DNA from: an uncultured Gammaproteobacteria bacterium
GTDB taxonomy: Bacteria; Pseudomonadota; Gammaproteobacteria; Steroidobacterales; Rariloculaceae
DNA length: 64,000 bases
Assembly: GCA_963702105.1 (NCBI GenBank)
Contig: OY969712.1
Coordinates: forward strand, 1,796,312-1,860,311
Direction of reading: 5' to 3'
Part shown: positions 27,232 to 28,041 of the stretch, piece by piece
How the letters are laid out: every line of letters begins with the position of its first letter
Position numbering within the stretch: position 1 is the first letter of the stretch
Notes under the pieces: generated by a model
Seen by the model: the letters and a program-made list of their open reading frames with translations, nothing else
The model's database searches: none
What the model was told of the DNA's origin: nothing
Position numbers and translations under genes: made by a program

Positions 27232-28041
27232 ATGCCACTAACGGTCTATGCCGAAGGCCTAGGTCTTTTTCATAAGGGCAGCAATGGGACTGGAGTGGCG
27301 GCCGGGGACGTATGCCTGTCGCCTCCGCCTCCGCCCACCGGCCCCGTGCCTGTTCCTTACGTCAACATGGTCCAAGCGTCAGATCTGGCGGATGGCAGCA
27401 AGAAAGTCACCATTGACGGCGAACCGACTGCGCTGTCCGATAAATCGAGTATCGCTACAAGCACCGGCGATGAGGCGGGCACTCAAGGCGGCAATGTCAT
27501 CACGCACAAGACAAAAGGTAAGGCGTATTTCGCCACGTGGTCCATGACCGTCACAGTTGAAGGGGAGGGCGTGTGTCGCCATAGCGATCTGCTGGGCCAG
27601 AACTGCGCGTCCAAGCCGTTTGGAATTATCGATCCTTCGGCCATTACGCGGATTTTGCCCAGCATACCGCCGAGCAAGCTGGGACAGCCGTGTCCCCCTG
27701 GGAAGGAGGAAGCGCCTGCGACCAAGACGAACACGGCTCAACGCGAGTCGGTTCGCGGTGGTCCATGCTGGTCGTGTGGGGCCACCGTGAATAAGGGGGT
27801 ATACAAGTCGGGGCGCGCGTTCAACAAAAAGGACCGCTTCGTTGCCGATCATCAGCCACCGCAGTCCGCAGTGTGGGCCATGGGTGGGTGCCACGACGAA
27901 AAAGCGTTCAACCAGTGGAAGCAGTCTACCGATGCCGTCGTGCCCCATTGTACGACGTGTTCGAACTCGCAGGGCACTGTGATGCGCGGTGCCCAGGGGA
28001 AAAGCGTGCTCGAGTATCTGGCTTTGGCGTGGCCAGGCTAA
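27232..28041 (+). CDS. PAAR-like (DUF4150) protein with C-terminal zinc-finger HNH nuclease-type toxin domain
   Basis: N-terminus FHKGSNGTGVAAGDVCLSPPPPPTGPVPVPYVNMVQASDLADGSKKVTIDG...STGDEAGTQGG is the DUF4150 pattern. The C-terminus has CWSCG (27766-27777) ... ADHQPP (DH at 27847-27852) ... GG ... N ... HCTTCSN (27946-27960), i.e. CxxC..DH..N..HCxxC. RBS GAGGGAG. Confidence 0.8.
   Translation: MPLTVYAEGLGLFHKGSNGTGVAAGDVCLSPPPPPTGPVPVPYVNMVQASDLADGSKKVTIDGEPTALSDKSSIATSTGDEAGTQGGNVITHKTKGKAYFATWSMTVTVEGEGVCRHSDLLGQNCASKPFGIIDPSAITRILPSIPPSKLGQPCPPGKEEAPATKTNTAQRESVRGGPCWSCGATVNKGVYKSGRAFNKKDRFVADHQPPQSAVWAMGGCHDEKAFNQWKQSTDAVVPHCTTCSNSQGTVMRGAQGKSVLEYLALAWPG

Follow-up and report, generated by a model that had tools for sequence, protein, structure and literature searches.

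A PIPY-capped candidate type VI secretion effector with an HNH-like zinc-finger tail and two candidate immunity proteins encoded downstream

The effector gene and its neighbours

The window, i.e. the whole stretch of 64,000 nucleotides from an uncultured gammaproteobacterium (Rariloculaceae) that was analyzed here, contains a genuine open reading frame at positions 27232-28041 of the forward strand (ATG at 27232, TAA at 28039-28041, according to the ORF list and its translation), which encodes a protein of 269 aa; a Shine-Dalgarno-like stretch, GAGGGAG, ends 4 nt 5' of the ATG. The product combines a PIPY/DUF4150 cap (residues 1-135, positions 27232-27636), a Pro-rich linker (residues 136-178, positions 27637-27765) in which alignment reveals a conserved C154 and Q170, and a C-terminal domain, denoted X, whose HNH-like zinc-finger core (residues 179-255, positions 27766-27996) was delineated by profile alignment with hhalign, an AF2 model and conservation, and consists of a CWSC knuckle, a VADH strand, a GGC element and the sequence PHCTTCSNSQG. 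On the best reading, this is a specialised type VI secretion system (T6SS) spike-tip effector with an HNH-like tail, followed by genes for two candidate immunity proteins.

Assignment of the N-terminal region to the PAAR-like DUF4150 family, already made in the initial annotation, is borne out by a match of PF13665 to residues 22-126 (103.2 bits, cut-off 31, E = 1.1e-29), and the PAAR structures 4jiw, 6p1z and 4ku0 are the Foldseek matches credited to the cap. PIPY caps carry a P(I/V)P(Y/F) motif instead of the PAAR motifs (PMC11883445); in the effector this is P40-V41-P42-Y43, kept in 124 of 125 aligned homologues, and the cap is linked to a DUF2169 gene (29026-30096) and to vgrG (24488-26698), as taken to mark PIPY proteins. 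A search with the effector returned 438 homologues, and the best-scoring among the matches listed cover 83-100% of the query. One independent assembly contains an identical protein; among genome loci, the nearest reach 74% identity in Mesorhizobium and 71% in a Caldimonas MAG. Soil and rhizosphere bacteria (including Mesorhizobium, Paraburkholderia, Caballeronia, Variovorax and Myxococcus) commonly carry the family, which occurs also in Acidobacteriota MAGs and is annotated in databases only as 'DUF4150 protein'. In loci L004 and L006/L007, PIPY and X are encoded by separate, overlapping genes that are split at the start of the linker; X, with a gene of its own in these loci, is an autonomous module.

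The flanking genes all lie on the forward strand. Upstream lie the gene for VgrG, the spike protein and predicted cap carrier (24488-26698, 736 aa), recognized as an ORF and from VgrG homologues that occupy the corresponding place in related loci (for the L003 orthologue, Pfam matches to Phage_GPD, Phage_base_V and Gp5 are on record), and a DUF6484 gene (26720-27199, PF20093, E = 3.6e-19), the product of which resembles TvpC, a short VgrG mimic (PMC13373197). Downstream, two small genes, Y1 (28064-28507) and Y2 (28523-29014), precede the DUF2169 gene (29026-30096, PF09937, E = 1.4e-81), coding for TvpA, the chaperone of the PIPY cap (PMC11883445, PMC13373197). Then follow a PRK06147/thiolase-like, TvpD-like gene (30093-31143, NF004798, E = 1.4e-32) and a gene for a TIGR02270 HEAT/armadillo-like island protein (31131-32423, TIGR02270, E = 4.4e-87, with a HEAT_2 match). 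Thus, all six components of the class II Tvp or 'synteny type A' set (VgrG, DUF6484, DUF2169, PRK06147/thiolase-like, TIGR02270 and a PIPY effector) are present, in an order that differs from that of the P. aeruginosa vgrG island, and the placement of the protein on the VgrG tip, as originally proposed, fits the flanking VgrG, DUF6484, DUF2169 and PRK06147-like genes. The PRK06147-like gene is frameshifted: NF004798 covers only residues 4-218 of its product, and tblastn matches of intact orthologues pass from frame +1 to frame +2 near 30745-30778, so that delivery in the source strain may be impaired.

Conservation of domain X and its relationship to HNH endonucleases

Conservation was assessed in an alignment of 143 homologous sequences, in which the totals vary slightly between columns. 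All the strings on which the initial annotation was based (HKGSNG, DVC..P, GPVPVPY, GSKKVTIDG, GDEAGTQGG, CWSCG, ADHQPP, GG, HCTTCSN) are found in the translation, whereas the spacings given between the C-terminal ones (x23, x9, x9, x13) were each two residues too long; the actual layout is CWSCG(179-183)-x21-ADHQPP(205-210)-x7-GG(218-219)-x7-N227-x11-HCTTCSN(239-245). The conserved blocks are C179-W-x-C182, D206-H207-Q-P-P, G-G-C220 and H239-C240-x-x-[C/H]243-S-x-x-Q247. D206 and H207, the latter in the place of the catalytic His that ends strand 1, are kept in 142 of 143 sequences, and C240 and Q247 are each invariant (143/143). Taken with the PF13665 score and the number of homologues, this conservation places the pattern well above chance. 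In the first knuckle, C179 is found in 139 of 141 and C182 in 130 of 140 sequences; at position 243, 99 of the 143 sequences have Cys and 44 have His, a Cys/His alternation that is typical of metal ligands. At the residue level, therefore, the alignment displays both knuckles of the Zn-finger subclass of HNH domains, i.e. a putative zinc site.

The canonical HNH domain has a structural Asn between the two strands and a metal-binding His or Asn on the helix immediately after the second knuckle. N227, which had been taken for the Asn of the HNH motif, is present in just 19 of 143 sequences and hence is not a conserved motif residue, and no other Asn column is conserved in X. The position following the second knuckle is Ser in 128 of 143 sequences, with the invariant Gln247 three residues on; conceivably, Q247 could substitute for the His/Asn metal ligand of the helix. 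X (pI 9.3) is considerably less conserved than the cap, with a median identity to the window sequence of 34% vs. 70%, and the rates at which X, Y1 and Y2 diverge are similar to those of accessory proteins such as TvpA and TvpD.

X matched none of the entries in Pfam, NCBIfam or the PDB sequences, and curated HNH-superfamily models (HNH, HNH_2-5, Endonuclease_7, Tox-GHH2, AHH and others) failed to match the C-terminal domain at E <= 10. Likewise, a Pfam scan of the 143 members detected no recurrent HNH, EndoVII or toxin family among the best 25 of 42 families, one divergent relative matched only Endonuclease_7 (E = 0.11), and searches of the PDB sequences, for which both the protein and profiles served as queries, found only a match of the PIPY region to the Rhs effector 8qjc. 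With only the C-terminal domain as query, a word-indexed search yielded no homologues, and an exhaustive phmmer search retrieved only 23 representative clusters, nearly all of them PIPY-linked. The remark that the tail does not belong to the GHH2 type holds: Tox-GHH2 (PF15635, with its GHH signature) matched neither the effector nor, among those best 25 families, the 143 members.

The link to HNH enzymes came from phage DNA. When 2.3 Gb of it were searched by tblastn with X and a minimal relative, P0161, 14 of 15 records were mycobacteriophage 'HNH endonuclease' genes; the four phage relatives compared with Pfam all match HNH_5 at E <= 3e-5, two being above the HNH gathering threshold and one above that of HNH_5. 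Alignment of the X profile with the phage HNH_5/HNH alignment by hhalign gave a probability of 95.8% and a score of 52.5, compared to 11.4 +/- 2.4 (maximum, 20.7) for 200 column shuffles and 12.3 for the reversed alignment; the associated E = 7.1e-9 has to be corrected because the phage target was picked by a similarity search, and a factor of up to roughly 5e6 (an estimate) brings it to about 0.03. All four motifs are aligned in register, PCWxCG / D(H) x x P / GG / PHCxxCSxx(Q/E)G. These observations support the homology of X to HNH endonucleases, of which it would be a divergent member outside the reach of the curated models.

Structure modelling is compatible with this relationship. An AF2 model built from the 143 sequences reached pLDDT 86-95 over residues 150-250 (pLDDT 32 from a single sequence), with a strand at 204-207, a strand at 236-239 and a helix at 241-254, i.e. 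at the positions of the motifs. Apart from PAAR, the top Foldseek match in the PDB was the HNH-SAVED nuclease Cap5 (probability 0.80), and matches in BFVD included IceA1, HNH endonucleases and the C-terminal domain of GmrSD, the query in both cases being the whole two-domain model; the E-values of these fold searches all exceed 0.01, and the weak non-PAAR matches are to HNH nucleases only. The zinc-finger HNH assignment originally made from a CxxC...DH...N...HCxxC layout is thus supported by the profile alignment with phage HNH_5/HNH proteins and the weak HNH fold matches; it needs correcting as to the Asn, the residues after the second knuckle (Ser and Gln, not His/Asn) and the curated HNH and EndoVII models, none of which matches the protein directly. 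Alignment of X with McrA alone was in register and not significant. A relationship to T4 endonuclease VII, considered on account of the similar motif layout, was rejected, with an hhalign probability of 0.2% against T4 gp49 alone and against an alignment of 40 EndoVII sequences. Myxococcus TsxE had been considered as a DUF4150 nuclease, wrongly, given that it carries hydrolase domains and is unrelated.

The Y1-Y2 pair and variants of the locus

Y1 (147 aa) and Y2 (163 aa, with a C-terminal MPYWPIG(L/I)D motif) are paralogues (E = 4e-12), and both are acidic, with pI 4.5 (Y1, median) and 4.9 vs. 9.3 for X. Y1 has no match in Pfam or NCBIfam, and a PDB sequence search for Y yielded a chance match alone. 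The pair directly follows X in 41 of 43 genome loci and in 30 of 35 informative metagenome loci, and is absent where the cap carries another toxin, which is the co-occurrence with the toxin domain expected of a cognate downstream gene. In three metagenomic loci, Y1 and Y2 are fused into one protein: L134 and L138, where the fusion is followed directly by TvpA and the 640-990 nt available upstream show no X, and L132, an orphan Y1-Y2 without TvpA. Judging from paralogy, synteny and pI, Y1 and Y2 are probably subunits 1 and 2 of a two-part immunity of the producer against X.

The order PIPY-X, Y1, Y2, TvpA, TvpD is fixed in 41 of 43 loci across several phyla, and X is almost never swapped within this PIPY cap lineage. 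The L083 locus has the X-Y-Y block downstream of TvpA and TvpD, beside truncated remnants of X. In L095, a related cap carries a Tox-GHH2-like domain (a weak GHH2 match with the GHH motif), with another gene downstream and no Y. In L101, a distant relative of X ends a gene that is truncated by the contig end, and an Imm33-like gene (E = 1e-40) lies directly 3'. Together with the divergence and autonomy of X, these three loci suggest that it behaves as a toxin cassette; yet, by diverging in step with accessory proteins and being almost never swapped, X, Y1 and Y2 are unlike typical hypervariable effector-immunity pairs.

Proposed mode of action, alternatives and known systems

We consider it fairly probable that X is a Zn-stabilised, HNH-type nuclease effector with two-part immunity, carried on the VgrG tip. 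The PIPY cone would cap the VgrG trimer encoded just upstream, and, by analogy with what has been published on Tse7, PefD and the Tvp proteins, the DUF2169 (TvpA), DUF6484 (TvpC) and PRK06147-like (TvpD) proteins would help load the cap. X, at about 110 aa, would fold into a compact, divergent HNH (beta-beta-alpha-Me) domain, with zinc probably bound by C179, C182, C240 and C/H243, with D206 and H207, which end the first strand, supplying a metal ligand and the general base, and with Q247 on the helix probably replacing the usual His/Asn metal ligand. Upon T6SS firing, X would enter the cytoplasm of the neighbouring cell, where it most likely nicks or degrades DNA, whereas in the producer and its kin, Y1 and Y2, probably jointly as a heterodimer or pseudo-dimer, would bind and block it.

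Catalytic competence of X is not guaranteed, given the lack of the structural Asn, Ser...Gln in the place of the helix His/Asn, and D-R where X has D-H in the closest phage relatives. The same features are compatible with X being a zinc finger that derives from HNH enzymes, is no longer a nuclease and serves as a structural or nucleic-acid/protein-binding appendage of a spike subtype, with Y1 and Y2 as chaperones or loading factors; so are the gene order fixed across phyla, the TvpA- and TvpD-like rate of evolution, and the L134 and L138 fusions that lead into TvpA with no X in the available upstream sequence. We regard this as improbable: such near-invariance of D206-H207 and Q247 would scarcely be expected unless they served catalysis or the precise binding of a ligand, clusters of the Tse7/PefD type function with the same accessory set and without X or Y, the accessory genes of L095 accompany a different toxin in the absence of Y, a relative of X has an Imm33-like immunity gene as its partner outside any Tvp context, and the orphan Y1-Y2 of L132 occurs without TvpA. 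If X is an active toxin, bulk DNA need not be its substrate: it might act as an RNase, as a nickase specific for a site or structure, or as some other hydrolase that depends on metal and uses an HNH scaffold. In favour of this, Ser...Gln and two insertions peculiar to the family, one following the first knuckle and the other lying between GG and the second one, alter the surroundings of the active site, and the phage HNH proteins have no equivalent of the conserved C154/C220 pair (C154 in 137/139), Q170 (138/141) or W215. A substrate other than bulk DNA appears quite improbable considering that the characterised PIPY-fused toxins in the cited literature are all nucleases, known or predicted (GHH2 in PefD and Tse7, VRR-Nuc in TseV), and a basic X with acidic Y proteins fits a nucleic-acid-binding enzyme, without discriminating between DNA and RNA.

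That the module is decaying and non-functional in the source genome seems very unlikely. The change of frame in the TvpD-like gene would block cap loading, and every gene of the comparable operon in P. mirabilis is needed for killing, but the ORFs of the effector, Y1, Y2, TvpA and TvpC are all intact, the effector recurs unchanged in an independent assembly, and the frameshift itself could be a sequencing or assembly error. A further reading, which we deem unlikely, is that X-Y1-Y2 is a conserved three-part unit unlike ordinary polymorphic toxin cassettes, in which an HNH-derived enzyme with a rewired active site (D-H...Q without Asn, plus two insertions and an additional pair of Cys) would have to be neutralised or handled by an obligate heterodimer of two ancient paralogues, fused in some lineages, or in which Y1-Y2 would act both as immunity and as a loading chaperone. 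A toxin that stays with one PIPY cap lineage across several phyla would imply a constrained target or an activity other than bulk DNA degradation.

Under the preferred reading, that of a nuclease effector with two-part immunity, the nearest characterised systems are Tse7-Tsi7 (the P. aeruginosa vgrG1b island, PA0095-PA0101) and PefD-PefE (Proteus mirabilis). Both likewise join a DUF4150/PIPY cap at the N-terminus to a toxin of the HNH superfamily, in islands that contain vgrG together with DUF6484, DUF2169, thiolase/PRK06147-like and TIGR02270/HEAT genes, where the toxin and its downstream gene(s) are the variable cargo. The toxin described here differs in being a domain of about 110 aa (PefD is 524 aa long and contains GHH2) and in having two putative Zn knuckles and no Tox-GHH2; two small paralogues follow it, in contrast to the single immunity protein of about 320 aa of the PefE/Tsi7 type, and the effector and Y1-Y2 precede the DUF2169 and thiolase-like genes, an order different from that of the Tse7/PefD systems. 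PIPY/DUF4150-capped spikes and the Tvp chaperones were worked out only recently, and the few characterised PIPY cargoes (Tse7, PefD, Tde2, TseV) are larger nucleases. X appears to be a widespread, uncatalogued zinc-finger relative of HNH enzymes within a type of weapon that is itself well known; the general picture of T6SS biology is unchanged. Reading the tail as a minimal toxin of the HNH type, accompanied by a paired candidate for immunity, gives many genomes a testable function, adds a compact candidate nuclease scaffold with an unusual D-H...Q site, and provides a clean system for asking how two-subunit immunity works.

The closest detectable sequence relatives of X, the mycobacteriophage HNH_5/HNH endonucleases (for example, Quesadilla gp79, KayaCho gp73, Acadian gp77 and Rinkes gp75), share with it the succession of PCWxCG, D-x-x-x-P, GG and PHCxxCSxx(Q/E)G, but are free-standing proteins, not secreted toxins, that lack the two insertions, C154, Q170 and W215, and keep the HNH Asn (RSNIRPHC). 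Among solved structures other than PAAR, the HNH domain of CBASS Cap5 (PDB 8fmf) matches the AF2 model best, as far as such matches go, those to Cap5 and other HNH folds being weak (E 0.02-1, identity 12-18%) and obtained with the whole two-domain model; unlike X, Cap5 is an intracellular abortive-infection effector under SAVED-domain control. The likeness to T4 endonuclease VII (Endonuclease_7), CxxC ... DH ... CxxC, is confined to the motif level. The X relative in the L101 polymorphic-toxin cassette reaches 45 bits with an X profile from which it had been left out and, like X, forms the C-terminus of a larger protein, with the Imm33-like gene and further ORF pairs directly downstream; unlike X, it has another N-terminal carrier, lacks the W and GGC motifs, and has the Imm33-like partner instead of Y1/Y2.

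A PIPY-capped effector gene in a vgrG island

The open reading frame at 27232-28041 (+) begins with ATG, ends with TAA and encodes 269 aa, with a ribosome-binding-like GAGGGAG stretch immediately 5' of the start codon, and the gene call of the initial annotation is confirmed; the same protein, 100% identical and with matching neighbours, is encoded in an independent public assembly. The PAAR-like DUF4150 N-terminus that had been read from the sequence was confirmed by a Pfam match of residues 22-126 to PF13665 (Tox-PAAR-like/DUF4150; E = 1.1 × 10−29), and PAAR proteins match the N-terminal half of the effector in a fold search against the PDB. 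This domain contains a P-V-P-Y motif, the type of motif that prompted Sachar et al. to rename DUF4150 as PIPY.

The effector gene is located inside a complete T6SS cluster (TssA, TssC, TssF, TssG, ClpV, TssK, TssL-M, TagF-PppA and PpkA among its members), in a block extending from vgrG through the second of two TIGR02270 genes. VgrG (24488-26698) and DUF6484 (TvpC; 26720-27199) precede the effector gene, which is followed by two small ORFs, Y1 (28064-28507) and Y2 (28523-29014), DUF2169 (TvpA; 29026-30096), a PRK06147-like thiolase-type gene (TvpD-like; 30093-31143), a TIGR02270 HEAT protein (31131-32423), a DUF922 protein (32339-33037, true start perhaps near 32420; Pfam E = 1.4 × 10−16) and the second TIGR02270 protein (33048-34310). 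The P. aeruginosa vgrG1b/Tse7 and P. mirabilis pef islands have this component set in common with the block; such islands have been termed 'synteny type A' (PMC11883445) or 'class II Tvp' (PMC13373197). The G+C content of the block (~24000-34600) is 60-63%, compared to 69-76% in flanking core genes (ClpV, FHA), suggesting that it is a mobile, horizontally acquired island within the T6SS cluster. The reading frame of the PRK06147-like gene changes near 30745-30778 (intact orthologues match frame +1 to ~30756 and frame +2 from ~30778), which points to a pseudogene or to an error in the sequence; if real, the frameshift could compromise loading.

Domain X and the HNH superfamily

The C-terminal domain of ~110 aa, denoted X, matched no family in a direct search of Pfam or NCBIfam and no sequence in the PDB, and a scan of all 143 aligned homologues revealed no recurrent family. 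Even so, X shows strong conservation. Altogether, 438 homologues were detected (query coverage 83-100% among the best-scoring matches listed), from sources that include Mesorhizobium, Paraburkholderia, Caballeronia, Variovorax, Myxococcus, Corallococcus and Roseateles as well as Acidobacteriota and Planctomycetota MAGs. In the 143-sequence alignment, where denominators differ per column, the conserved positions are C154 (137/139), Q170 (138/141), C179 (139/141), W180 (136/140), C182 (130/140), D206, H207 and P209 (each 142/143), W215 (140/143), G218-G219-C220 (140-141/143), C240 and Q247 (both 143/143) and S244 (128/143). Position 239 is H in 127 sequences and Q in 16, and position 243 is C in 99 and H in 44, a Cys/His switch of the kind that metal ligands show. 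All sequence strings quoted in the initial annotation were found in the translation, but each spacing was 2 residues too long, the actual layout being CWSCG-x21-ADHQPP-x7-GG-x7-N-x11-HCTTCSN; furthermore, the Asn included as a motif residue (N227) does not belong to the motif and is present in only 19 of the 143 sequences.

In the AlphaFold2 model derived from the same alignment, residues 150-250 have pLDDT values of 86-95 and form a strand (204-207) ending in A-D-H, two short helices, a strand (236-239) and a helix (241-254) that starts from the second knuckle. No curated HNH model was matched, and fold search gave only weak HNH matches, namely, to the HNH-SAVED nuclease Cap5 as the top PDB hit (E = 0.1, probability 0.80) and, among viral models, to IceA1, HNH endonucleases and the GmrSD C-terminal domain (E = 0.02-2); these are suggestive at most because the aligned region of the model is not reported. 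T4 endonuclease VII and McrA have similar motif layouts, but the hhalign comparisons were not significant.

Phage sequences supplied the decisive link: a tblastn search of a phage collection with X and the minimal relative P0161 retrieved almost exclusively mycobacteriophage 'HNH endonuclease' genes in 14 of 15 records (E = 2-9). All 4 fetched phage proteins match HNH_5 (Pfam) at E ≤ 3 × 10−5, 2 of them also exceeding the HNH gathering threshold and 1 the HNH_5 threshold, and show the pattern PCWECGAMVND...HVDRIIPAH.GGRYIRSNIRPHCPTCS(H/C)R(E/Q)GAR. Profile-profile comparison of the X and phage alignments gave 95.8% probability (E = 7.1 × 10−9, score 52.5), with the knuckle, D-x-x-x-P, GG and PHCxxCSxxQG in register; because the phage target was chosen via a similarity search, a conservative correction for this choice leaves the match near significance. 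By comparison, 200 column shuffles of the phage alignment scored 11.4 ± 2.4 (maximum 20.7) and the reversed alignment 12.3.

Given this profile match and the fold matches consistent with it, X is filed as a divergent member of the HNH/His-Me-finger superfamily, closest to HNH_5-type phage proteins. The initial reading of a zinc-finger HNH-type domain, distinct from GHH2, joined to a PIPY/DUF4150 spike cap is essentially right. The D206-H207 dyad is nearly invariant. The predicted active site of X is non-canonical: the structural Asn of canonical HNH domains is lost, Ser...Gln occupies the place of the His/Asn that binds the catalytic metal, and X further contains two insertions and an additional pair of conserved Cys residues, C154/C220. 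At the catalytic dyad, X keeps the usual D-H; the mycobacteriophage HNH_5/HNH proteins (L097-L100) show D-R at this site and a His two positions before it (HVDRIIP), raising the question whether these are active nucleases.

X-Y-Y as cargo and candidate immunity

Y1 and Y2 are paralogues (34% identity, E = 4 × 10−12) with no family assigned in Pfam or NCBIfam; they are acidic (median pI 4.5 and 4.9, respectively) and X is basic (9.3). The order PIPY-X, Y, Y, DUF2169, PRK06147-like is present in 41 of the 43 genome loci recovered via the cap subfamily, and when metagenomes were searched from the Y2 side, X lay just 5' at 30 of the 35 loci that were informative. Three of the remaining loci carry a Y1-Y2 fusion, a single protein of 316-323 aa encoded by an orphan gene near vgrG with PIPY-X and DUF2169 absent nearby (L132, 2913-3884) or between an acidic Pro-rich repetitive protein and DUF2169 (L134, 636-1589; L138, 985-1935); these fusions argue that Y1 and Y2 function as one unit.

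Median identity is 34% for X compared to 70% for the fused cap, and this much lower conservation, together with the organization of several related loci, sets X-Y-Y apart from the machinery as cargo. At L004 (5617-6453) and L006/L007 (1947-2725), the cap (126-127 aa) and X (133-150 aa) are separate genes, abutting or overlapping by 4 nt, and the split coincides exactly with the domain boundary. In a Gammaproteobacteria MAG (L083, 7001-11876), a divergent second PIPY-X-Y-Y lies 3' of DUF2169 and the thiolase-like gene, its X-Y-Y block matching the cargo position of the Tse7 island; on one side it is flanked by PIPY and a 5' portion of X that continue in frame into a DUF6484-like tail, and an orphan degenerate 3' X fragment follows the block, an arrangement of recombination scars. 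The related cap at L095 (58% identity) bears a GHH2-like domain and precedes an unrelated 313-aa gene, with no Y. A distant X relative (L101, 1-4271; 45 bits against an X profile built without it) forms the C-terminal end of a larger, 5'-truncated gene with an Imm33-like gene immediately downstream of it (E = 1 × 10−40) and, further on, two more pairs of a ~310-aa and a ~155-aa ORF, a layout that resembles toxin-immunity cassettes in series. Nevertheless, the divergence of X, Y1 and Y2 proceeds at roughly the pace of the accessory proteins. Among the genome loci compared, this cap lineage hardly ever shows a replacement of X, so that X-Y-Y behaves more as a co-inherited unit than as a hypervariable toxin locus.

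As the favoured mechanism, we consider it fairly probable that X is a compact metal-dependent nuclease that would be delivered by the T6SS and neutralized in the producer by the Y1-Y2 pair. X would then represent a widespread putative toxin subfamily, so far unannotated, with an unusual paired immunity candidate; the value lies in annotation and in a good experimental target, and a T6SS specialist would not be surprised.

Other genes of the region

The DUF922 protein, flanked by the TIGR02270 HEAT-repeat paralogues where the vgrG island ends, might be a second cargo with a partner or an accessory gene. TssL (DotU) and TssM (IcmF) domains are combined in one 1626-aa ORF (38160-43040); in the Mesorhizobium locus L003, these are separate genes. 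One gene (43045-44508) joins a TagF N-domain to a PP2C phosphatase, and the next (44505-46118) encodes a Ser/Thr kinase; together with the FHA protein (34690-36306), this pair (43045-46118) resembles a threonine-phosphorylation control module. A Sel1-repeat and caspase (Peptidase_C14) protein just past the T6SS genes (46216-47847) and, upstream, an 843-aa patatin-like phospholipase (9205-11736, −) could each be an effector or a defence protein.
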